A stretch of 45,901 bases of DNA from Escherichia phage vB_EcoS_Zar3M: the sequence record NC_073065.1; one strand, given 5' to 3'. The translations under genes were made by a program, and so were the position numbers. The notes below the pieces were generated by a model that was not told the DNA's origin, did not search any database, and saw nothing but the letters and a program-made list of their open reading frames with translations. This document shows positions 3,289 to 41,329 of the stretch, one piece after another. How positions within the stretch are numbered: position 1 is the first letter of the stretch; the number at the start of each line of letters is the position of its first letter.

Positions 3289-3384
3289 ATCTACCACCGC
3301 GGTTAATTCCGGGCTTTTTATTGCTTGACTTGCAACCAACATAGAGGCCATACTGCGACCAATCAACGAGAGGAGTAGTAAACT

Positions 3385-3526: not shown

Positions 3527-4669
3527 ATGCACCCGCAAACTAAAATCACCGACGAGCAATTGATCGCCGAGTTGCAATCCGGCNCNNCCNCGAAANANAT
3601 TGCGAANAANTANGGTNTTTCCCNCCNAAATGTCTACATGCNAAAANCCCNCCTGTCGAANAAAGGTNTTGGTCNCGGNAANGANGCCGTAANCCGNAAG
3701 CGNGTTGCNGNNGGNTTNGGNGTTAAGNGTGTCNCCNCCCTGGNGNGNGGAAANGGNGAAGAGGTCATGTNGNGGGTTATCACTGAGCAGGACAAGGAGC
3801 GCCAGCTTGAGGCAATGCGCGCCGTTGTCGAGGGTATGAACAGCGAAATCAAACCGGCAGCACCCGTAAGCGCCCCGCCGGTCCCGATCCATGCGCTCGA
3901 CCTACTCAACCTGTACACCGTGTCCGACTTCCACCTGGGCATGTTGGCCTGGGGCGAGGAGACTGGCGAAGACTGGGATATGGCGATTGCCGAAGACCTG
4001 TTCTACCGCTGGTTTGTCGAAGCCTTCGCACGCGCACCGGACGCAGGCACTGCCGTAATTAATATCCTCGGTGATATGGCCCACTTTGATAGCCTCGATG
4101 CCGTCACTCCCGCCAGCGGTCACGTACTGGACGCGGATACCCGCTACCAGAAACTGGTCCGATACATGATTCGCATGGTGCGCAACGTGGTAGACCTGGC
4201 GCTGCAGAAACACCACAAAGTCAAACTGCTAATCGTCCAGGGGAATCATGACGAGTCGGGCATGATTTGGCTGGCTGAAATGTTCCATACTCTGTACGAG
4301 AACGAGCCACGCGTCGATGTGGATACGTCCCCGGACGTATACAAAATGGTGCAGCACGGCAAGACCACGCTGTTCTTCCACCACGGGCACAAAGCGCGCT
4401 TCGATGCCATCGAAACCGTCATGATTTCAAAATTCAGACAGGCTTTCGGGTCCAGCGAGTACAGCTACGCGCATGTAGGCCACTTGCACCACCAGAAGAT
4501 TGTAGAATCCCGCAACATGATTGTTGAACAACACCGGACCCTCGCAGCGAAAGACGCATATGCCAGCCGCGGCGGTTGGATGTCCGGTCGTAGTGCCAAC
4601 GTAATCACCTATAGCGCCAACTACGGCGAAGTAGCGCGCCTGACCATTAGCCCGGAAATGTTGAAATGA
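3527..4669 (+). CDS. metallophosphoesterase (calcineurin-like) with N-terminal HTH-like extension
   Basis: Calcineurin-type motif series DFHLG, GDMAH, QGNHDE, HHGH, GHLHH; N-terminal ~60 aa (ITDEQLIAELQSG...) looks like a helix-turn-helix; n-masked patch 3586-3775. Confidence 0.7.
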   Translation: MHPQTKITDEQLIAELQSGXXXKXIAXXXGXSXXNVYMXKXXLSXKGXGXXXXAVXXKXVXXXXXVKXVXXLXXGXXEEVMXXVITEQDKERQLEAMRAVVEGMNSEIKPAAPVSAPPVPIHALDLLNLYTVSDFHLGMLAWGEETGEDWDMAIAEDLFYRWFVEAFARAPDAGTAVINILGDMAHFDSLDAVTPASGHVLDADTRYQKLVRYMIRMVRNVVDLALQKHHKVKLLIVQGNHDESGMIWLAEMFHTLYENEPRVDVDTSPDVYKMVQHGKTTLFFHHGHKARFDAIETVMISKFRQAFGSSEYSYAHVGHLHHQKIVESRNMIVEQHRTLAAKDAYASRGGWMSGRSANVITYSANYGEVARLTISPEMLK

Positions 4670-4993: not shown

Positions 4994-5545
4994 ATGGCAG
5001 AAATCAAAGTTAAGGGCCGTCGCGCTAAACTGGACGGACGAGTAGCAGTTACCCCGCGCCGTAAACCAGGCGAGCAAACAGAACATACCAATCTCGGGCC
5101 GGAGATCGAATACGGCAAGCGCCGCAGAGGTGGCAAATGTGGACGCCCTACCGACTACCGTTCCGTGTATTGTGACCAACTTCGACGCTATTTCGCCGAT
5201 GCCGTAGCCTGGCAAGTTAACTACTCCGACAAGGGTGCTGCGCAAGTAATTCCCCGCAACATGATGCCTACCTTTGGTCGCTTCGCCGCAAAGATTGGCG
5301 TAGGCGTCGCATGCCTTTATCGCTGGGCGCGCGCACATGAGGAGTTCGCCGAGGCAATGGCTGACGCTATGGAGCTACAGAAAACCTTCCTGATGGAAGC
5401 TGGCGGCGTGACCATCGCGGCGGGCTTCGCTACCTTCCTGCTTAAAGCCAACCACGGCGTCCGGGACGATGTACCGCTGGATGACGACGAAGATGATAAC
5501 GGCGACGTCGTTGTGGAACCTACCGGCAAAGGTCAGGGTGATTAA
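4994..5545 (+). CDS. terminase small subunit (putative)
   Basis: Directly upstream of and overlapping terminase large subunit (TAATG); basic N-terminus, HTH-like segment RFAAKIGVGVACLYRWARAHEEF, acidic C-terminal tail. Confidence 0.55.
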   Translation: MAEIKVKGRRAKLDGRVAVTPRRKPGEQTEHTNLGPEIEYGKRRRGGKCGRPTDYRSVYCDQLRRYFADAVAWQVNYSDKGAAQVIPRNMMPTFGRFAAKIGVGVACLYRWARAHEEFAEAMADAMELQKTFLMEAGGVTIAAGFATFLLKANHGVRDDVPLDDDEDDNGDVVVEPTGKGQGD

Positions 5546-11367: not shown

Positions 11368-12072
11368 ATGAAACTTACTAAAGCAGAATATGACGCGTTG
11401 CCGGAAGGTATGAAGGCGCTTTTTGTTGCCGATGGCGACGGGTATAAATCAACGTTCATGACCGCAGAAGAAGTACAGGCGGAAATCAAGGGTCTGAAAG
11501 ACAACAACGCTAAGCTGGTGAGCGAGAAGAAAGCANAAGCNGAACCCCNCCCNNAAGGGGNGNGCCTNGNNAAANANAAANAGGAAGCCNCCNCNCNCAA
11601 AAACGGNGACCTCGAAGCGATCGATAAGTCCTGGAAGGATAAGTTTGCGAAACACGAAGCAGATACATCGGGAAAAATCGAAGCCTACCGCAAGCAGATC
11701 CACGACCTAACCATCGGCAGCGCTGCCAAAGACCTGGCATCGAAGCTATTCGGTAAGAATGCGGGAATAATGCAACGTCACGTTATGGATCGCCTCACTC
11801 TGGAGGACGGCGAAGACGGCAGCTTGAAAGTGCGTGTCTTGCAGGATGGCAAACCGTCCGCGCTGACTATGGAAGAGCTTGAAAAAGAGTTCCGTAATAA
11901 CGCCGATTTTGCATCCGTTCTGGCTGGCACGCCAGCCGGTGGCGCGCCTAGCAAACCGACGCAGGTTGTCGAAGATGTGAAGTCGAAAATCACTATGGGC
12001 CATAGCTTCGGTATCACTGACCTTACGAAACAGGCGGGGGATATCATCGCGAAGATGGGCGACGACGAGTAA
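11368..12072 (+). CDS. scaffolding protein (putative)
   Basis: ATG at 11368 with GGGGGA RBS; charged, helical, low-complexity protein immediately upstream of major capsid gene. Confidence 0.55.
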   Translation: MKLTKAEYDALPEGMKALFVADGDGYKSTFMTAEEVQAEIKGLKDNNAKLVSEKKAXXEPXXXGXXXXKXKXEAXXXKNXDLEAIDKSWKDKFAKHEADTSGKIEAYRKQIHDLTIGSAAKDLASKLFGKNAGIMQRHVMDRLTLEDGEDGSLKVRVLQDGKPSALTMEELEKEFRNNADFASVLAGTPAGGAPSKPTQVVEDVKSKITMGHSFGITDLTKQAGDIIAKMGDDE

Positions 12073-14297: not shown

Positions 14298-14891
14298 ATG
14301 GCTGAAGTCTACTCATTCGCCGCCACTATTGCTACGTGGGTGGATAAGACGAAGGAGAACAACGATAAGGCGGTGCGGGCGTACGGGATGCAAATACTCG
14401 GACGCCTTATTGAGATCTCCCCGGTGGGCGACCCTCGCCGGTGGAAGATTAACAAGGATTATGCAANGGCCCNCCAGCACGCGAANAAGGTGAACNCCGC
14501 ACAGCNCCNCAAGAATGGNGGCAAACTGAAGCGCGGGCAGAAGAAGCNCGCCAGTGTGCTCATCTCATTCAAGACTAAAAACGGCAACGTCACGTTCCGA
14601 CAGCGTGGCTGGGCTGCGAAGAATTACACCGGCGGACGCTTCCGGGGAAACTGGCAGGTTACGTTCGACAGCCCGGCTGTCGGCGCTATTGACCGCGTGG
14701 ACAAGGCCGGAACGGCAACATTAGCCGCGGGGCGTGAAGTGCTGGCGCATTACGATTCCGGGGAATACGGGTCGATCTGGTTTACTAACAATGTGCCGTA
14801 TGCGCAGCGACTTGAGTATGGCTGGAGTAAACAAGCGCCTGCGGGGATTGTTCGCGTCGTAGCGGCAGAAATTAATTCGAAGGTGAAATGA
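14298..14891 (+). CDS. neck/tail completion protein (putative)
   Basis: 197 aa in head-tail joining module; coupled to next gene by ATGATG overlap. Confidence 0.45.
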   Translation: MAEVYSFAATIATWVDKTKENNDKAVRAYGMQILGRLIEISPVGDPRRWKINKDYAXAXQHAXKVNXAQXXKNXGKLKRGQKKXASVLISFKTKNGNVTFRQRGWAAKNYTGGRFRGNWQVTFDSPAVGAIDRVDKAGTATLAAGREVLAHYDSGEYGSIWFTNNVPYAQRLEYGWSKQAPAGIVRVVAAEINSKVK

Positions 14892-22024: not shown

Positions 22025-22632
22025 CCACATTTAAATTGTACGGCGTCTTAGGACGTCGTTTTGGTAAAGTGCATAAGCTGGATTGCTTCACACCGGGCGA
22101 GGGTATCACCGGCCTGTGCGTTAAGTTACCCGGCTTACAGGACTTTCTAATGTCGGCCCACCTGGACAACATGATGTTCAAAGTGCGCAAGGGCAATCAC
22201 ACCATGACCGGCTATGATGAGCTGGGCGNGTTCCACGGCGACCGCGTAGTGACCATCNCNCCGGTTATGNNGGGNGNAAAAAGNGGNNNGGGCCAATTNN
22301 TGGGGGGGGNNGNGNTNGNGGNGGGGNNGTTNTNCGCCCCNGCNCTTGCNCCCCCCCCTTTTGGGGNTTNGGNNGCAACNGCNNCCNCTNTCGGTNCGGN
22401 GACGTTTTCGTTCGGCATGTCGCTTGCGATGGGCGGTGCTATGCAATTACTGTCGCCACAACCGAAAGGATTGCAGACCCGGCAGGACGTGGATAACAAA
22501 GCGTCGTACGCGTTCGGCGGACCGGTAAACACAACCGCGCAAGGCACGGCACTTGGTGTATTATGGGGCGAGCGTGAGATCGGCGGCGCTATTATTTCCG
22601 CCGGAATCGTAACCGAGGACTTGAACGAATGA
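22015..22632 (+). CDS. tail assembly protein I (lambda gpI-like)
   Basis: Position between K and J; N-terminal TTFKLYGVLGRRFGKVHKLD ubiquitin-like region; Gly-rich n-masked centre. Confidence 0.6.
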   Translation: MAMTTFKLYGVLGRRFGKVHKLDCFTPGEGITGLCVKLPGLQDFLMSAHLDNMMFKVRKGNHTMTGYDELGXFHGDRVVTIXPVMXXXKXXXGQXXGGXXXXXGXXXAXXLXPPPFGXXXAXXXXXGXXTFSFGMSLAMGGAMQLLSPQPKGLQTRQDVDNKASYAFGGPVNTTAQGTALGVLWGEREIGGAIISAGIVTEDLNE

Positions 22633-26054: not shown

Positions 26055-26076
26055 AGGGGCTTCGGCCCCTTCTATT
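26055..26076. terminator. bidirectional terminator between J (+) and reverse operon (-)
   Basis: AGGGGC-TTCG-GCCCCT hairpin with T-rich tail; flanked by convergent stops. Confidence 0.5.
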
Positions 26077-26690: not shown

Positions 26691-26969
26691 TTACCCCCAA
26701 TACGTATATATAAATCTTGATTCGCCAGCGTTAAAGCCGCTCCAGGAGACAGTGTTGTCGCTTACGGATATTGATGGCGCACCCCAAGATGTGCCGTTCC
26801 AGGTATGCGTACCAACGTAACCTGCCTTTAAACTTTTCCCCGGCGGACGGTTGTGATACGTCTTGCTCCCGGATGGTTGTGTGAATTTGTCAAGAAAAAA
26901 AACCGGCGTTAACAGGCCTGTGACGTCACGACCATGTTCGTCATAAATCGCGTACCCATAGTTACTCAT
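26691..26969 (-). CDS. hypothetical protein (92 aa)
   Basis: ATG at 26969 preceded by GGAG; 8-nt ATGAGTAA overlap with lipoprotein gene stop. Confidence 0.4.
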   Translation of the reverse strand: MSNYGYAIYDEHGRDVTGLLTPVFFLDKFTQPSGSKTYHNRPPGKSLKAGYVGTHTWNGTSWGAPSISVSDNTVSWSGFNAGESRFIYTYWG

Positions 26970-29140: not shown

Positions 29141-29164
29141 AGGGGCCATACGGCCCCTTTTTTA
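29141..29164. terminator. bidirectional intrinsic terminator between late (+) and replication (-) operons
   Basis: AGGGGCC-ATAC-GGCCCCT followed by TTTTTT; convergent stops on both sides. Confidence 0.65.
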
Positions 29165-29737
29165 GTTTGAGTTTTCCCAGTCCATTTTGCGCCGCACCAG
29201 CGGGCTTTCAAAGTATTCCTTGCCCTCAACTTCCACCAAAGGCCAGTCGTTCACAATCACGTACGGCTCCGCGATATCCTCAATCACGCCGTGCGCGCTT
29301 TGCGGCCCTAACGACACACCAACCAGGATAACCCCGGCAACTCGACGAGTGAGATACTCGCGAGCGCAACGTGCCTCAACCAGCCCCCTACGGATGCCGC
29401 TGGTGGCCTTAACCTCGTACGCCCAAACGGCATCAATCATATGTTCCCGGAAGTCGGGACCAGACTTTACCTTGCGTTTGCCGACCATGATAATATCGCC
29501 GCGGTCGATAGTGTTAGCGCTAAACAGGCCGGTACGCATTAGCAAACCTTGAGGGATACAGCTACGCCCGCCCGCCTGCCCTTCTAGGTACATGCCCGCA
29601 AACATCTCACCCAGCACACCTACAAGGCGGCTTTGTTTGCACGCGTCAGACTTTAAGCGCCACTGTTCAAACTCTATGCTTGCGATCATTGCTGCGAGGT
29701 GGAATTGTTTACCGGTTATTTCATATTCGCCGTACAT
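29162..29737 (-). CDS. hypothetical protein, possible PD-(D/E)XK nuclease
   Basis: GPDF...(18 aa)...YEVKA resembles a PD-(D/E)xK core; weak assignment. Confidence 0.35.
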   Translation of the reverse strand: MYGEYEITGKQFHLAAMIASIEFEQWRLKSDACKQSRLVGVLGEMFAGMYLEGQAGGRSCIPQGLLMRTGLFSANTIDRGDIIMVGKRKVKSGPDFREHMIDAVWAYEVKATSGIRRGLVEARCAREYLTRRVAGVILVGVSLGPQSAHGVIEDIAEPYVIVNDWPLVEVEGKEYFESPLVRRKMDWENSN

Positions 29738-29778
29738 TGTGAATCCCTCATTGATGCGGGCCGAAGCCCGCGATTAAA

Positions 29779-30231
29779 TTATTTAAGTGCGCCAGTCACC
29801 AGTGTTTTTTCCATGTTGCGGAAATCTTCCGGCGTCATGAGGATTTTGGACCCATCTTCGCCGGTGAGCACGACCATAGGCCGGGCGTCTTGATCTGCGG
29901 TGGGGCAACCTTTGAGGCTTTCAAACTGTTCTGCCGTTGTGTCGATCTGAATCTCGTCATGCACGGGCATGTAAGACTCGCCCAGCAGGGAGGCATACGC
30001 CACCAGGTCCACGATGTTATCTTCCTGGTGCTTACGGTGCTGTCGCACCAGCTTCAGGCAGATCAGGAAGGTCCAGGCTTCTTGCTCGGTCAGGTCGCGA
30101 CCGGTAAGCGCGTTAAACACGGCAGCGATTTGCTTAGCGCTGCGTTCCTCTTTCGCGTTGTCATAGCCGTTTTCTTTTCCGCGCTGTTCCATAGTGGTGG
30201 CGGCGTTTTTGCAGTATTCGTATGCTTTCAT
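29779..30231 (-). CDS. hypothetical protein (150 aa), all-alpha acidic
   Basis: Intact ORF with AAAAAGGAAAACACCATG start context; upstream promoter-like box with palindrome GCAACCAATTTATTGGCTGC. Confidence 0.45.
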   Translation of the reverse strand: MKAYEYCKNAATTMEQRGKENGYDNAKEERSAKQIAAVFNALTGRDLTEQEAWTFLICLKLVRQHRKHQEDNIVDLVAYASLLGESYMPVHDEIQIDTTAEQFESLKGCPTADQDARPMVVLTGEDGSKILMTPEDFRNMEKTLVTGALK

Positions 30232-30294
30232 GGTGTTTTCCTTTTTCGGGGAGGCCGTATTGCCTCCCTGCGCGTTAACTATAGTGCAACCAAT

Positions 30295-30765
30295 TTATTG
30301 GCTGCAAGTGAATTTTGCAACGTTTATTGCGTAAATATTCGGGACCAGATCNNTGNNCGCCCGACGAATTGCCGCGATGTTCTTCTCGCAATCTTCAATG
30401 ATGACCAGTTCCGACACGTCCGCATAGCAGACCATTTTGAACACGGCGCACGCCTTAAACTCAGGCGGTGGGGTGTCGTCCAGCATGTGGCGCATAAACA
30501 ACCGACCGACAGGGAAGACCTCCAGTTGCTCGGCGGTAGTCTCCCAGCATTCTCGCTGCCGGTTTGTCAGATACGCGATCTCGAAGCCTTGCTCTTTATA
30601 CATGCTCAACAGCGGCAGCATATCCATGTTAAGGTCTTCGCGTACGTGCGCTTTGTGCCACTTCGCCCAAAATGTTGATTTGGTTTTTATACCTGGAACC
30701 AGGTCGGCGCGTGCATCACTCGAACCATTAATAACGCCATCAAGATCACAAATCAGTAGTTTTAT
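30295..30765 (-). CDS. HAD-superfamily hydrolase (phosphatase/nucleotidase-like), non-ATG start
   Basis: HAD motif I KLLICDLDGVI lies 46 codons upstream of the first ATG (30627); motif II IAYLTNRQ, motif IV-like IIEDCEKN; only in-frame start is ATA at 30763-30765 overlapping the upstream TAA. Confidence 0.5.
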   Translation of the reverse strand: MKLLICDLDGVINGSSDARADLVPGIKTKSTFWAKWHKAHVREDLNMDMLPLLSMYKEQGFEIAYLTNRQRECWETTAEQLEVFPVGRLFMRHMLDDTPPPEFKACAVFKMVCYADVSELVIIEDCEKNIAAIRRAXXDLVPNIYAINVAKFTCSQ

Positions 30766-30986
30766 TGTAAGCTCTCAATAAGGGTGTATCGGACGCTGCG
30801 CGCGGAAAACTTGTTACACACAAGATGCCAACGGGCGGTTATGACCAGCCAGCCGGTAAGATCCAGGCCCAGGATATATTCTGGACGTGACACGCGCTTC
30901 ACACGATCGCGGCGCGGGTCGATGTTATAGTCTATTTGCATTCGGACTACTACCGCAGGGTCGCGGTTAACGATTAAGATATTCAT
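30762..30986 (-). CDS. hypothetical protein (74 aa)
   Basis: Intact ORF between Dam and HAD genes; overlaps both. Confidence 0.4.
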   Translation of the reverse strand: MNILIVNRDPAVVVRMQIDYNIDPRRDRVKRVSRPEYILGLDLTGWLVITARWHLVCNKFSARSVRYTLIESLQ

Positions 30987-31452
30987 GTAGTACTCCTTCG
31001 CTCATTATTTCAATTCGTGCGCTGCCGATTGGCGGCGCTTCGTCAAAGATTATCAATTGCTGGCACTTGTTATTGCTCGGCCCGACTTCACCGGTGACAG
31101 CGTGTATAAATCTAATCCGCCAGTCCAGAAGAATTATCAGGTTTGCCGCCTTCCGGGCCAGCTTCGCCCACTTCGTCGACGTGTCCTGATTCAGTAGCAT
31201 GACAGTCTGGCGTCCGTGCGCCGCGCATTCCACCCACGGCAGCGGATCGGAATACGGCGGGTTGCACCACTTCCACCCTTTCAACTCTGCCCAGTCCACA
31301 TCAAGCGCGCTGTGCTCTGCCGTGAAGTAACGCGGTAGCAGATGATTGGCGTCGCTTGCCGCCATATCGTAACGGAATCGGTACTTCCGACGAAGCGGTT
31401 TAAATAAAGCTGGCGGCGTGCGCCAGCTATCTTTTTGCTTATTCTTCTGCAT
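30967..31452 (-). CDS. DNA N6-adenine methyltransferase (phage Dam-type)
   Basis: N-terminal WRTPPALF, DMAASDANHL and NPPY catalytic motif (WCNPPYSD), matching the small phage T1-type Dam family. Confidence 0.7.
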   Translation of the reverse strand: MQKNKQKDSWRTPPALFKPLRRKYRFRYDMAASDANHLLPRYFTAEHSALDVDWAELKGWKWCNPPYSDPLPWVECAAHGRQTVMLLNQDTSTKWAKLARKAANLIILLDWRIRFIHAVTGEVGPSNNKCQQLIIFDEAPPIGSARIEIMSEGVLHEYLNR

Positions 31453-31903
31453 GACCTGGATCTATCGCATAAAGTGGACTCTTATTGCCGGTTTTCATAA
31501 CGCGCTGGACGCGCTTTGACTCCTCGGCGCTCAGTTGGCGCGCATTCGTGTATAACCTGCCGTTTGTATGTATGCGCCACGCTATCAGCACCAGATCTTT
31601 CCGGTCGATCTTAGACTGGCGGCCCTTCGGTCGCACGTACGCCTCGGCCCGTTTGCAATGCTCGCGCAGACCTTCGGCAGTGATGCGGTTTAGTTGAACG
31701 GTGGTTGTGTACCCGGTGCGCTGCATAATACCCATCAACTCATACAGCAGTTCGAAGCGCTCCTCTAATTCCTTGCGCGCCTTCTCCTCGCCTTCATATC
31801 GCGCATGATAGGTGTCTGCCAGCGCGCTAACACGTTCGGCCTGTTCTCGGGCTTCGAGGCATTGCGCGGCCCAGTATGCTTTNTCGAAAAATAATGATCT
31901 CAT
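31439..31903 (-). CDS. hypothetical protein (154 aa)
   Basis: Listed ORF begins at TTG; likely true start is ATG at 31903 (GGAGACGACACATG). Helical, charged protein. Confidence 0.45.
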   Translation of the reverse strand: MRSLFFXKAYWAAQCLEAREQAERVSALADTYHARYEGEEKARKELEERFELLYELMGIMQRTGYTTTVQLNRITAEGLREHCKRAEAYVRPKGRQSKIDRKDLVLIAWRIHTNGRLYTNARQLSAEESKRVQRVMKTGNKSPLYAIDPGHAEE

Positions 31904-31990: not shown

Positions 31991-32303
31991 AATAAAAGTT
32001 CGGGTCGCGTGCGACGTCTACCAGGTAAAGGTTACTTATGCGGTTGCCGTAGTGCCCTGGAGTGCGCTGGCGGCACACAACGGCGAAGCCGGGAGGGATT
32101 GTATTGCCCGTCTCAATAATCCACGCGACGCGTGCGCCAGACAGCGTCTTTCCGTTGCATTCGATACGTGTTCCGCCATCGGCAGTATTGATGTTGCCAA
32201 TCTTGCAGCCGGTGGACTTCAGACGGATGACGCCGGTTTTGCTGTCGTAGGTGAATAGCTGGTTAGTCATTGCGACCGAAAAGTCGATGGCTTCGAATGT
32301 CAT
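31986..32303 (-). CDS. HNH endonuclease-like protein (intact copy)
   Basis: Pattern LFTYDSKTG...GKTLSGARVAWIIETG..IPPG...NRISNLYLV resembles HNH_3-type phage endonucleases, though the canonical DH dyad is not obvious; ATGA overlap with methyltransferase. Confidence 0.45.
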   Translation of the reverse strand: MTFEAIDFSVAMTNQLFTYDSKTGVIRLKSTGCKIGNINTADGGTRIECNGKTLSGARVAWIIETGNTIPPGFAVVCRQRTPGHYGNRISNLYLVDVARDPNFYS

Positions 32304-32995
32304 TTTAAATTTTCCTCGTTAACCGCTATCGCGAAGCCGCGCGGAGTGAGCGACCGGATTAATTTTGTGCGGGCTGATTTGCCTCCGAGGCGACTATACT
32401 GCTTCGAGTACCCTTTTTCAACGAAAACAGGTCTCTTCTCTGGCATACGGAAGCCGTTGCCGGTCCATAAGCAGGTCAGCTTCGGATATGAATCGCGAGC
32501 GTTGATGTATTCCGGGAAGAGCGGGTGTACGTCATCCTCCGGCAGATATCCCCCATACTCCCACGGGTCGAATGAGTGATCCGGCTTGCGCCACTGGGTG
32601 GAAAGCACACTGCGCGGATTCTCAATCATATATGGCACTTCAAAGAAGTCACCTAAGTAAGCGGCAATCTTCGCGGNGCGCACCGCCTTAAGCTGAAAGG
32701 CAGGGTCTTTAGCACGCTTGCGAGGGAAAGCGGGTGCACCGCTCACTGCCAGATCCGTACACGGCGGGAATGCATAAATGATATCCGGCGTGCCGAAATC
32801 ACCATTCATCGCGCGGTCCACGAAGTCCAGATCGATAAACTCATTACGATATCGGATACCGCGCCCATAAATCCGGTAGTCCAGGTACGAGCCGTGATCG
32901 GCTTCGGAGTAGTTGAAGCAATAACACTTATGCCCCATCTCGGCAGCACGCTCAATCATCAAGCCGCTGCCGTCGAATAATGACCAGATAATCAT
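32300..32995 (-). CDS. DNA (cytosine-5)-methyltransferase-like protein, copy 1
   Basis: Motif I-like SLFDGSG, PC motif AFPPCTDLAVSG, ENV-like MIENP; 231 aa (short for a C5-MTase). Confidence 0.6.
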   Translation of the reverse strand: MIIWSLFDGSGLMIERAAEMGHKCYCFNYSEADHGSYLDYRIYGRGIRYRNEFIDLDFVDRAMNGDFGTPDIIYAFPPCTDLAVSGAPAFPRKRAKDPAFQLKAVRXAKIAAYLGDFFEVPYMIENPRSVLSTQWRKPDHSFDPWEYGGYLPEDDVHPLFPEYINARDSYPKLTCLWTGNGFRMPEKRPVFVEKGYSKQYSRLGGKSARTKLIRSLTPRGFAIAVNEENLK

Positions 32996-33264
32996 ATGCG
33001 CGCCTTTTTAGCTTTCATGTATTCCATCAAGTCGTCCTGGATATCTCGCTTACTGTCTCGACGCTCTGCGACCAGTTCATCCAGTGTGCCGCGCGCCTGG
33101 ATAATGTAGACGAATACCGGACGAGGGTGTCCGGCTTGCATCTGGCGAACTGGCCCGATACGTTCAACTGCCCGTCTCAATAATCCACGCGACGCGTGCG
33201 CCAGACAGCGTCTTTCCGTTGCATTCGATACGTGTTCCGCCATCGGCAGTATTGATGTTGCCAA
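32992..33264 (-). pseudogene. helicase 3' fragment (duplication-derived ORF)
   Basis: C-terminal 57 aa identical to helicase C-terminus (ERIGPVRQMQAGHPRPVFVYIIQARG...KAKKARI); N-terminal part is out-of-frame junction sequence. Confidence 0.5.
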
Positions 33265-33367
33265 TCTTGCAGCCGGTGGACTTCAGACGGATGACGCCGG
33301 TTTTGCTGTCGTAGGTGAATAGCTGGTTAGTCATTGCGACCGAAAAGTCGATGGCTTCGAATGTCAT
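33164..33367 (-). pseudogene. truncated HNH endonuclease-like gene (duplication-derived)
   Basis: First 66 aa identical to 31986..32303, truncated at the duplication junction and lacking the NRISNL region. Confidence 0.5.
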
Positions 33368-34059
33368 TTTAAATTTTCCTCGTTAACCGCTATCGCGAAG
33401 CCGCGCGGAGTGAGCGACCGGATTAATTTTGTGCGGGCTGATTTGCCTCCGAGGCGACTATACTGCTTCGAGTACCCTTTTTCAACGAAAACAGGTCTCT
33501 TCTCTGGCATACGGAAGCCGTTGCCGGTCCATAAGCAGGTCAGCTTCGGATATGAATCGCGAGCGTTGATGTATTCCGGGAAGAGCGGGTGTACGTCATC
33601 CTCCGGCAGATATCCCCCATACTCCCACGGGTCGAATGAGTGATCCGGCTTGCGCCACTGGGTGGAAAGCACACTGCGCGGATTCTCAATCATATATGGC
33701 ACTTCAAAGAAGTCACCTAAGTAAGCGGCAATCTTCGCGGNGCGCACCGCCTTAAGCTGAAAGGCAGGGTCTTTAGCACGCTTGCGAGGGAAAGCGGGTG
33801 CACCGCTCACTGCCAGATCCGTACACGGCGGGAATGCATAAATGATATCCGGCGTGCCGAAATCACCATTCATCGCGCGGTCCACGAAGTCCAGATCGAT
33901 AAACTCATTACGATATCGGATACCGCGCCCATAAATCCGGTAGTCCAGGTACGAGCCGTGATCGGCTTCGGAGTAGTTGAAGCAATAACACTTATGCCCC
34001 ATCTCGGCAGCACGCTCAATCATCAAGCCGCTGCCGTCGAATAATGACCAGATAATCAT
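33364..34059 (-). CDS. DNA (cytosine-5)-methyltransferase-like protein, copy 2
   Basis: Identical to 32300..32995; ATGA overlap with full-length helicase stop. Confidence 0.6.
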   Translation of the reverse strand: MIIWSLFDGSGLMIERAAEMGHKCYCFNYSEADHGSYLDYRIYGRGIRYRNEFIDLDFVDRAMNGDFGTPDIIYAFPPCTDLAVSGAPAFPRKRAKDPAFQLKAVRXAKIAAYLGDFFEVPYMIENPRSVLSTQWRKPDHSFDPWEYGGYLPEDDVHPLFPEYINARDSYPKLTCLWTGNGFRMPEKRPVFVEKGYSKQYSRLGGKSARTKLIRSLTPRGFAIAVNEENLK

Positions 34060-35480
34060 ATGCGCGCCTTTTTAGCTTTCATGTATTCCATCAAGTCGTC
34101 CTGGATATCTCGCTTACTGTCTCGACGCTCTGCGACCAGTTCATCCAGTGTGCCGCGCGCCTGGATAATGTAGACGAATACCGGACGAGGGTGTCCGGCT
34201 TGCATCTGGCGAACTGGCCCGATACGTTCAACGATCTGCGAAAAGTGCTCAAAGTTCCAGGTATCGGNGAAGATTGCCNGGNGNTGTCCTCCGTCCTGCA
34301 AGTTAAGGCCGTGGCCTGCCGATGCCGGGTGTGCAAACATGATGGGGATCTCGCCTCTGTTCCACGCTTCCATATCCTTATTGCCCTGCTTACCTTTACC
34401 CAACGCAACGCCGTGCGGAAATTTCTTCTTAAGACGTGCCAGGTCATGCTTGTACTGATACGCAACGAGCAACGGCGCACCGTTCAACTCCTCCACGATA
34501 CTTTCCAGCGCGTCCAGCTTCGCGTCGTGAATCTTCACCCACTCGTCGGTCCGTTCGCCGTCTTCGTCCACCTTATACACGGCACCGGACGCAAGCTGAA
34601 GGCACTTGATGGTCTTCGACGCAGCGTTCGCCGCCTCTACGGTCCCGCTTTCCAGTTCTGCAAATAGCTCCGCTTCAAACTGATCGTAAATCTTGCGGGC
34701 TTTCTTCGGCAGGTCCACAACAACCGGCGTATAGATTGGCTTGTCGCATCCGAAGTATTCAGCCGCGTCAACGGTTAGTGATACGTCAGACAGGCGTTGT
34801 TGTATTTCTTTCTCGGAGTTCTTTAGCGGAGCGTGCTGCATCGTGAAGCTGCCAGGCTTAACAGGCTTGCTAATGAACCAGCGATCGGTGAATGCCTTAT
34901 AGCTACTGCCGAGGCGTTCGCCACCGTCGACAAACCACGTCTGACCCCATAAGTCTTTCAGCCCGTTTGGTGCTGGTGTGCCTGTAAGGTTAATCCAGCG
35001 CTTGACGTGTTTATGTGCAATCGCTGCCAGTGCGCGGGCGCGCTTGCTCCCCTGCTTGCTACGATAGCCTTTCAGCTTAGTCGATTCATCGGCAACAACG
35101 ACCGTAAAGGGCCACGCATCGCCGTAATATTCGACCAGCCACTCGACCACATCGTAGTTAACACAAACCACGTTAGCGTCGCTATCAAGCGCGGCAATAC
35201 GGTCCTTCTCCGGTCCGGTGCCGTCTACGACCAGCAGGGNTGAGAACCNCCATTTCTCCTGTTCCGGGGGCCATGTACCCGACGCAACACGCAGCGGGGC
35301 CAGCACCAGTACGCGGTCCTCATGATGGGACAGGATGCCAGTCTGGAACATTTTGTTCAGCGCCCACATTGTCGCGCCGGTTTTACCCGACCCCATTGTC
35401 GCCCAGATATTGCATCGCTTATGCTTGAGGATGAACGCGGTAATCAACTTCTGATATTCGCGGCGTCGGAATCGTGCCAT
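34056..35480 (-). CDS. SNF2/DEAD-like superfamily 2 helicase
   Basis: Walker A MGSGKTG, DEAH-like VVVADEST, C-terminal helicase domain; likely start is ATG at 35480 (MARFRRREYQ), not the upstream listed start. Confidence 0.75.
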   Translation of the reverse strand: MARFRRREYQKLITAFILKHKRCNIWATMGSGKTGATMWALNKMFQTGILSHHEDRVLVLAPLRVASGTWPPEQEKWXFSXLLVVDGTGPEKDRIAALDSDANVVCVNYDVVEWLVEYYGDAWPFTVVVADESTKLKGYRSKQGSKRARALAAIAHKHVKRWINLTGTPAPNGLKDLWGQTWFVDGGERLGSSYKAFTDRWFISKPVKPGSFTMQHAPLKNSEKEIQQRLSDVSLTVDAAEYFGCDKPIYTPVVVDLPKKARKIYDQFEAELFAELESGTVEAANAASKTIKCLQLASGAVYKVDEDGERTDEWVKIHDAKLDALESIVEELNGAPLLVAYQYKHDLARLKKKFPHGVALGKGKQGNKDMEAWNRGEIPIMFAHPASAGHGLNLQDGGXXXAIFXDTWNFEHFSQIVERIGPVRQMQAGHPRPVFVYIIQARGTLDELVAERRDSKRDIQDDLMEYMKAKKARI

Positions 35481-39906: not shown

Positions 39907-41329
39907 TGCTTAAGTCCTCGTCAGTAGCTACAGACCACGCAGGGCGCGGGTCGTCGATGGGTGCTAATACCGGTTTAGCGGGTGCGCGCGTGATTTTATC
40001 ACACAACTTTGCCCACACTTTCGGCTTCTCGTCCTTCAATACCTTCTCGGCATCAGTAGGGCTGAGTAATGTTTCTTTGTACATCACGTCGCGCTTGATC
40101 CGGGCCTTCGTGAAGATCTCAATCACTTCGCTCTCGTCCGCCCACTTGCGGATTCCTTCCTTACCGGCAACCATCTTGAGGCCCAGCGATTCNCCATCAC
40201 CCNCCATTACGGCCTTNAACNCCGCGGNCNCGANAGCCTTGNTNTGNTGGCGCNTTGNGNCAANACCTTCANAANCCTTNCGCNGTTCCNCCNCNCCCAN
40301 NGCNCNGGGGGGGNCTTTTTTTTTNCCCCNCTCCCCNCGNGGNNCCCCTTTGGGGGNTNNGGGGGCCATNTTGNGGNCGTGATTGGCGCATTCTTCCTCT
40401 GTCGAAATACTCACGTCGTCGCCCAGGTCTTCGTCTGTTGCCGTTGGTGGGGCCATAGTGTCGATTGCAGCCTTAGCGCGGGCGCTACACTGATCCGCAA
40501 ATCTGCACCATTGACACGCATCAACGCTCGGTCGGAAGTCGGCACGGGTGAGTCCCTTTTTGCCGCGGTCGTACGCTTCCAGGGCGGCGATAGCACGCTT
40601 GGACGCAAACTTCGCGAATATCTCCAGGGCTTCTACCGAAATATCCCACTCCGACGCCCCGCCGCAATACGGCTGGAAGATAACCAGGCGCACGGTCGTA
40701 ATGTCGTACATAGTTTTCAGCTTGCGCAGCAGGCCCAGCGCATACAACATAAGCTGTTTGTTTTCTTTCGCCTCGACCTTATGCCGCCCCGTCTTCAGGT
40801 CGCCAACAATCAGCATGTACGTGCCGTCGGTCTTCTTCATGACCATGACCATATCCGCAGTGCCGAACGTCTTAACCCGGTTGCCGTCGATCTCGAAGCC
40901 AGAGTGTAGGACGCGGGTAAGATCGGCGCGCATCTCAAGCTGAACAAACTCCGCCACTTCGAGGAGCGGTCGCCAGTGGTCGATGTATGCGTCGCACTGT
41001 TTCACCATGTCGTCGTTGACCAGCACGCCGCCTTTCGGTGCTTTCGGGTGCGCCTTCACCGGCCCCTTACCTTCGTTCTCGACGTAACACCCTTTGTACG
41101 TCTTCGCGGTTATCAGCTTTTCACCGGCGATAATGCGGTTGAGCACGACTTCAGATACAGTGTGCATACTCGTACCGTTAATCGCCGCTTGCCCGGATTC
41201 GTTCGGGATACCTTGTTCTACCACCAGGGCGGCTGGGCAACCCATCCATTTTTTAGCACCGGATGGGCCGAGTAATGAATGCTCCGTGTTGCTACCGGAT
41301 TGCGTTTTACGTTTTGGTTTAATCGCCAT
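39899..41329 (-). CDS. DUF2800-type PD-(D/E)XK nuclease (Cas4-like, Cys cluster)
   Basis: N-terminal LLGPSGAKKWMGCPAA and C-terminal CQWCRFADQC Cys cluster, as in Cas4/RecB-like phage exonucleases. Confidence 0.65.
   Translation of the reverse strand: MAIKPKRKTQSGSNTEHSLLGPSGAKKWMGCPAALVVEQGIPNESGQAAINGTSMHTVSEVVLNRIIAGEKLITAKTYKGCYVENEGKGPVKAHPKAPKGGVLVNDDMVKQCDAYIDHWRPLLEVAEFVQLEMRADLTRVLHSGFEIDGNRVKTFGTADMVMVMKKTDGTYMLIVGDLKTGRHKVEAKENKQLMLYALGLLRKLKTMYDITTVRLVIFQPYCGGASEWDISVEALEIFAKFASKRAIAALEAYDRGKKGLTRADFRPSVDACQWCRFADQCSARAKAAIDTMAPPTATDEDLGDDVSISTEEECANHXXXMAPXXPKGXXXGEXXKKKXPPXXXXXXEXXKXXEGXXXXRXXXKAXXXAXXKAVMXGDXESLGLKMVAGKEGIRKWADESEVIEIFTKARIKRDVMYKETLLSPTDAEKVLKDEKPKVWAKLCDKITRAPAKPVLAPIDDPRPAWSVATDEDLSNE

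Follow-up and report, generated by a model that had tools for sequence, protein, structure and literature searches.

The ATA codon that opens the phosphatase gene of the Escherichia phage vB_EcoS_Zar3M sequence (NC_073065.1) is probably a side effect of a non-biological step, editing or processing, that altered gene boundaries in a consensus scaffolded on a reference, and not a feature of a living phage's translation. The whole stretch analysed, which is 45,901 bases long and is here called the window, is chimeric sequence on a reference scaffold and does not represent a natural or de novo genome. Isolated substitutions in its reference-derived parts are placed non-randomly, on start and stop codons, and at the junction that carries the ATA all relatives have ATGA. 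On the sequences compared, the start codon is not novel biology, being a normal ATG in every natural relative, and the phosphatase gene is an ordinary, widely conserved accessory gene of Dhillonvirus, to which the window belongs.

A phosphatase frame that opens with ATA

The preliminary description of the window, made without a reference sequence, had reported that the HAD nucleophile motif of this gene lies ahead of its first ATG and that the expected start is an ATA overlapping the TAA of the gene upstream. Both statements were borne out by reading the minus strand from 30765 (ATA AAA CTA CTG ATT TGT GAT CTT GAT GGC GTT, translated as IKLLICDLDGV), and the first of them by the listing of open reading frames as well. 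The features of the gene and its start region are given below, with Escherichia phage vB_EcoS_PTXU06 (MK373789.1; NC_073064), here PTXU06, as the reference phage, whose annotation places the phosphatase CDS (QBQ80478.1) at exactly the same coordinates.

30295-30765, minus strand: full-length frame of 156 codons, predicted gene for a stand-alone HAD (T4 Pnkp-type) 3'-phosphatase
30763-30765, minus strand: ATA codon in place of the invariant ATG start
30739-30747, minus strand: HAD motif I, codons 7-9 (GAT CTT GAT), D7-x-D9, nucleophile and general acid/base
30625-30627, minus strand: codon 47, the first in-frame ATG; a product begun here would have 110 aa and no motif I
30772-30776, minus strand: intact GAGAG Shine-Dalgarno-like element, 6 nt upstream of the ATA
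30762-30764, minus strand: TAA stop of the upstream 74-aa gene; TGA in PTXU06 and all relatives
30762-30986, minus strand: upstream 74-aa gene (phrog_10685), ending CAA TAA
30352-30357: NNCANN, with four ambiguous bases (30352, 30353, 30356 and 30357) inside the phosphatase gene

In the phosphatase frame, the open reading frame listing contained no ATG, GTG or TTG between the upstream in-frame stop and codon 47. That stop lies 4 codons 5' of the ATA, with only E-L-T preceding the ATA. The 110-aa form begins after D7 and D9 and contains neither, which upheld the earlier claim that a product started at the first ATG would lack the catalytic nucleophile. The four Ns leave two codons of the gene unreadable.

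The base at issue, 30763, is T on the plus strand and A on the coding strand. The ATA and the upstream TAA share positions 30764-30763 as an ATAA overlap, and because the corresponding overlap elsewhere is ATGA, a single G-to-A change at 30763 converts TGA to TAA and ATG to ATA at once. In natural relatives the 74-aa gene is translationally coupled to the phosphatase gene through this ATGA overlap, and GAGAG or GAGGA is found at equal spacing.

Two other ways of producing a longer protein were considered and rejected. Initiation at the near-cognate codons CTG (codon 4) or ATT (codon 5) would cost the protein the greater part of strand 1, and neither codon serves as a start in relatives. A programmed -1 frameshift fusing the 74-aa ORF to the phosphatase would call for a slippery heptamer of the form X XXY YYZ, and none was present at the junction (AGC TTA CAA TAA AAC); the fusion is also contradicted by the relatives, where two separate genes are annotated with an ATGA overlap.

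The repaired protein resembles Pnkp-type 3'-phosphatases

For protein comparisons, Met was restored at position 1, giving a protein of 156 aa. It matched PHROG 415, 'polynucleotide kinase', over its whole length (E=3.4e-35). In an alignment of 14 homologues down to 42% identity, M1, K2, L3, I5, C6, D7, L8, D9, G10 and V11 were invariant, and the ATA of the window aligned exactly with the invariant M1 of every one of them. The comparison with orthologs that the preliminary description had proposed thus found the upstream motif present and invariant, and the start to be ATG.

The protein belongs to the HAD superfamily, with all four motifs and the fold in place. Motif I, hhhhDxDx(T/V), is represented by KLLICD7LD9GV, which forms strand E2-7 in the structural model; motif II by YL(T/S)NR, with Thr or Ser at 67; motif III by the invariant K104; and motif IV by (E/D)D at 124-125, where D125 is invariant. 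The model was an AlphaFold2 prediction of a homologue (P0002) that is 96% identical to the repaired window protein, and it reached a pLDDT of 87.2 and a pTM of 0.82. It has a Rossmann-like alpha/beta core, and 32 of 32 Foldseek matches in the PDB with E<=1e-3 were HAD-fold proteins. The top four ranks of this fold search were taken by chains of Pnkp1 (4xru, 4xrp) and T4 Pnkp, followed by other HAD phosphatases, and superposition on the phosphatase domain of T4 Pnkp (5uj0_A) gave TM scores of 0.71/0.77 with an rmsd of 3.0. Bacterial Pnkp1 (4xrp) was also first in a sequence-profile search of the PDB (E=0.0013).

Sequence comparison and the model together suggest that the protein is most like the 3'-phosphatase domain of Pnkp, and we predict a stand-alone 3'-phosphatase of the T4 Pnkp type. 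In T4 Pnkp (PDB 5uj0, 2ia5, 1rpz) and in the bacterial Pnkp1 of the Pnkp1/Rnl/Hen1 RNA-repair complex (4xrp, 4xru), the DxD acyl-phosphatase motif likewise stands at the extreme N-terminus of the domain. The window protein differs from both in standing alone at 156 aa with no kinase domain and in having DLDGV as motif I and not DxDGT, and it shares only 17-22% sequence identity with the solved Pnkp-type structures. A second likeness was to the Class C (HAD IIIB) acid phosphatases (PF03767; PDB 2i33), in the form of a weak profile similarity over residues 4-101 that includes motif I and a WxxW-type cap segment. The Pfam match to PF03767 (Acid_phosphat_B) scored 23.6 bits (E=4.3e-5), below the gathering threshold of 27 bits, and some homologues have a precomputed match to this family. 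Compared with Class C acid phosphatases, the window protein is far shorter, and it lacks the features of a signal peptide or lipoprotein.

Relatives have ATGA at the junction

About 150 phage records match the phosphatase region. The junction reads ATGA in PTXU06, PaulFeyerabend and SECphi18 and at 14 IMG/VR loci, and 33 relatives plus CEC_Kaz_2018, projected onto PTXU06 coordinates, all have the ATG/TGA base at 30763. Full-length database homologues all begin MKL, the largest cluster having 440 members. The ATA allele itself was sought in several ways: a metagenome scan permitting ATA or ATG found ATG in 11 of 11 contigs and ATA in none; a pattern scan of viral contigs that allowed any third base matched one contig, which has ATG; a blastn search of 50,697 phage records with the 51-mer around the ATA found no match at 100%; and a look-up for proteins exactly identical to the 74-aa upstream product of the window returned no record.

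Since ATGA occurs in every relative, it is the ancestral and universal state, and the ATA is unique to the window. The proposal that one G-to-A change in an ancestral ATGA had kept the upstream stop while destroying the start therefore proved right, with G at this position in PTXU06, CEC_Kaz_2018 and the other relatives. ATGA stop/start overlaps are a feature of phage operons, and the junction of the 74-aa and phosphatase genes is such an overlap in all natural Dhillonvirus relatives. At least 11 other ATGA junctions are intact in the window, where this junction alone has become ATAA, its stop kept and its start lost.

The same comparison bears on the idea of functional non-canonical initiation, in which ribosomes would re-initiate on AUA after the upstream UAA and make active phosphatase at a reduced, possibly tuned, level. 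The intact GAGAG element with its 6-nt spacing and the preserved stop/start geometry of termination-reinitiation coupling would suit such a mechanism. Near-cognate AUN starts behind a Shine-Dalgarno element are also known from infC and pcnB of E. coli, both of which start with AUU. The AUU start of infC serves the autoregulation of IF3. These two genes are the only confirmed non-canonical starts in E. coli; the efficiency of AUA, AUC, AUU and CUG as start codons there is ~1-2% that of AUG in vivo (Hecht et al., bioRxiv 10.1101/063800). In vitro, once its initiation region had been optimised, an mRNA with AUA showed the same behaviour as its AUG counterpart (He et al., PMC5499595).

However, the expected expression in the cell would be only ~1-2% of the ATG level, and no non-AUG/GUG/UUG start is conserved among orthologues: ATG was found in all projected relatives, at the 14 IMG/VR loci and in the 11 contigs, and an ATG or Met start in all 34 relatives and the database homologues. 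In contrast to infC and pcnB, the ATA is limited to one low-quality sequence and occurs in no relative; the sequence is of poor provenance, and the change belongs to the set of boundary edits described below. As an evolved feature, non-canonical initiation, one of the readings first offered, has no comparative support, and we consider it highly improbable. Still harder to credit is the specific case in which the AUAA is real and full-length Pnkp-type phosphatase continues to be made by re-initiation on AUA; if true, it would be a case from nature in which translational coupling sustains an AUA start.

The window is anchored to a single reference

Comparison with PTXU06 (45,904 bases) showed how the window is built. 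The two have identical coordinates with zero internal indels, and the window differs by 2326 substitutions (~5% divergence) and by single Ns scattered over 577 positions. A de novo genome would be expected to have indels when compared with relatives, and to vary independently of the coordinates of any one reference; the window shows neither feature. About 93% of the 2326 substitutions are alleles of CEC_Kaz_2018 (MK728541.1, hereafter Kaz), and 163 are not. Identity to Kaz is 99-100% in most 1-kb bins of the window and 100.0% across the small-terminase gene (4994-5545). Plain PTXU06 sequence stands in the window wherever Kaz and PTXU06 diverge by more than ~10% or Kaz has no corresponding segment; such PTXU06-derived blocks make up ~9.9 kb (9909 bases). 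The substitutions are overwhelmingly synonymous, and none of the 63 PTXU06 CDS has acquired a premature stop or lost its stop. Simulated or random synonymous recoding was rejected as a source, since ~93% of the substitutions are exact Kaz alleles.

PTXU06 also contains a perfect tandem duplication of 1064 bp (32105-33168 and 33169-34232), which the window keeps. In the window, the 91 differences from PTXU06 found in one copy recur identically in the other, the outcome to be expected if a single-copy genome had been mapped onto a duplicated reference. The duplication covers part of an HNH-like gene and a Dcm-like methyltransferase gene, and Kaz annotates a single such Dcm-like methyltransferase gene. 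The duplication may be an assembly artefact of PTXU06 itself.

Base calling in the window was poor. Its Ns fall on naturally polymorphic sites no more than expected (22% against a background of 19%), and N clusters also occur at 3584-3773. At 22300-22420, bases are smeared into runs of G or C (GGGGGGGG, CCCCCCCC) where the relatives are mixed. Ns and smeared runs of this sort are typical of consensus calling at low quality or low coverage. For the CEC_KAZ_2018 genome, Genome Detective and Geneious were used to analyse early nanopore data (PMC6728635), which suggests a workflow of that style as a possible origin for such a consensus. Clusters of G/C swaps were also seen at 11546-11559, 22304-22357 and 40312-40362, resembling the cluster at 3295-3299 described below, and might represent hairpin or inversion-type variation, or misalignment.

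Around the phosphatase start, the window alternates between the two sources, informative sites being those at which Kaz differs from PTXU06.

29779-29940: PTXU06-type block
29941-30357: Kaz-type block, 30 of 30 informative sites
30352-30357: Ns at the junction of Kaz-type and PTXU06-type sequence
30358-30967: PTXU06-type block, 63 of 63 informative sites
From 30968: Kaz-type sequence resumes

Within 30358-30967, position 30763 is the sole difference from PTXU06. Because the switch between blocks falls inside the gene, the phosphatase gene is itself chimeric, and its start codon lies in reference-derived sequence.

Isolated changes in reference-derived sequence fall on start and stop codons

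The 9909 bases of reference-derived blocks contain 10 differences from PTXU06. Three are clustered and private (A to C, G to C and C to G at 3295-3299, in a terminator hairpin), and lie at the edge of a hairpin that PTXU06 annotates at 3297-3314. The other seven are isolated C-to-T changes on the plus strand.

26076, 26691, 26969, 30763, 30968, 35961 and 36271: isolated plus-strand C-to-T changes, each a coding-strand G-to-A in a start or stop codon of a minus-strand gene

The seven comprise three conversions of TGA to TAA, three of TAG to TAA and one of GTG to ATG. Start and stop bases account for 1.17% of the reference-derived blocks, so seven of seven on these boundaries has a probability of ~3e-14 by chance. 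Among the minus-strand genes of these blocks, all six non-TAA stops and the only GTG start were converted. The excess extends to the genome as a whole, where 10 of 100 private SNPs (substitutions absent from PTXU06, Kaz and the other relatives) fall on start or stop bases against 0.8 expected (p = 7e-9). Changes at 30295 and 31440 were also listed among the private start/stop changes in minus-strand genes.

Start codons follow the pattern too. All six GTG or TTG starts of PTXU06 read ATG in the window, and 62 of its 63 CDS start with ATG. At 2424 and 16728, GTG is kept by Kaz and by five other relatives, which are all that cover these sites, and at 26969 it is kept by the one relative covering the site; at 14298, 16981 and 30986, ATG occurs naturally in Kaz or other relatives. 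Two of the stop edits also alter proteins through gene overlaps: the change at 30968 produces a private D7N in the 74-aa protein, and that at 31440 a private E5K in the Dam-like methyltransferase.

Several sources for these edits were rejected. Natural alleles were excluded since most of the edited bases are absent from relatives: in the projected set, the window base at 26076, 26969, 30763, 30968 and 31440 was found in no relative, and those at 26691, 35961 and 36271 in one relative each. Sequencing error specific to a methylation motif or k-mer did not fit either, the edit contexts sharing no motif beyond the start or stop codon. Nor had there been a universal recoding of all stops to TAA, with 24 TGA and 2 TAG stops still in the window.

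That base calling or consensus building went wrong at random at 30763, independently of the other changes, and merely happened to strike the last position of a start codon is very unlikely in the light of these counts. The window does have 577 Ns, smeared homopolymers and four Ns in the phosphatase gene itself, and the nanopore origin of the related CEC_KAZ_2018 genome points the same way, but random error would not be expected to place seven of seven changes on start or stop codons, each one a G-to-A on the coding strand in the direction of ATG or TAA, nor to leave all 63 CDS without a premature stop.

The start could instead have been destroyed by a real and recent G-to-A mutation that left the upstream gene unharmed, making the phosphatase gene a null or strongly hypomorphic allele, that is, a young pseudogene. 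The remaining phosphatase frame is intact and identical to PTXU06, which fits a very recent event, and the other 62 CDS have no premature stop, lost stop or lost start, indicating that the substitutions in the window are for the most part genuine alleles, not noise. The gene also appears dispensable enough for disrupted copies to be found in public data: a frameshift or truncation disrupts P0005 and P0008, and P0011 begins at the internal Met that corresponds to codon 47 of the window. A mutation of this kind, however, leaves unexplained both the set of seven start/stop edits in reference-derived sequence (p ~3e-14) and the private D7N and E5K changes that accompany neighbouring conversions of stops to TAA, and the change occurs in no relative or metagenomic contig. 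We therefore regard a genuine start-loss mutation as unlikely. In the databases, one 90-aa homologue ('MAG TPA: Polynucleotide kinase') begins at Met47, the start that a gene caller would choose here.

A construction artefact as the probable source of the ATA

The non-random placement of the edits leads us to infer that they are non-biological and that the ATA arose in the construction of the sequence. Reads or contigs of a Kaz-like Dhillonvirus would have been placed on PTXU06 coordinates, their alleles being used wherever they could be placed and PTXU06 bases being retained elsewhere. Isolated coding-strand G-to-A edits would then have been overlaid, confined to the start and stop codons of genes on the minus strand and bringing these codons to canonical form (ATG in place of GTG, and TAA in place of TGA or TAG). 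On this account, the edit at 30763 would be the conversion of the 74-aa gene's stop from TGA to TAA, with ATG to ATA as collateral; D7N (30968) and E5K (31440) are the same collateral damage from stop-to-TAA edits in overlaps. The real gene would have an ATG start, ordinary Shine-Dalgarno-dependent coupled initiation and a 156-aa product, as in every relative.

Two points weigh against a construction artefact. First, truncated and frameshifted copies exist in nature, so a genuine loss-of-function allele would be unsurprising. Second, the editing is irregular: reference-derived blocks retain three unedited TGA stops on the plus strand, private changes at 14890 (TAA to TGA) and 16844 (TAA to TAG) run away from TAA, and five other minus-strand ATGA overlaps keep their TGA, all of them in blocks of CEC_Kaz_2018 alleles.

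The preliminary description had left three readings side by side, namely non-canonical initiation, an inactivating mutation and a base-call error. Artefact as a class is the one favoured here, in the form of processing at gene boundaries and not of the random base-call error then envisaged. The set of boundary edits could not have been seen by a reader without a reference sequence.

The practical value of the finding is as a warning that the window is chimeric, contains 577 Ns and carries unnatural start and stop edits. Its single-base oddities, including the lost start, its unusual stop usage, the private amino-acid changes in overlaps and its uniform ATG starts, should not be taken as biology without the reads. 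More generally, where genes overlap, an edit to the stop codon of one can silently destroy the start of its neighbour.

Gene neighbourhood

The phosphatase gene lies within a conserved block of minus-strand genes at 29162-31903, with the following neighbours.

29779-30231, minus strand: DUF6378 protein, 'nucleotide modification associated' in one record
30967-31452, minus strand: Dam-like methyltransferase
31439-31903, minus strand: phrog_10530 protein, 'DNA ligase, no evidence' in some records

The block may be a module for the end-repair or modification of nucleic acids.
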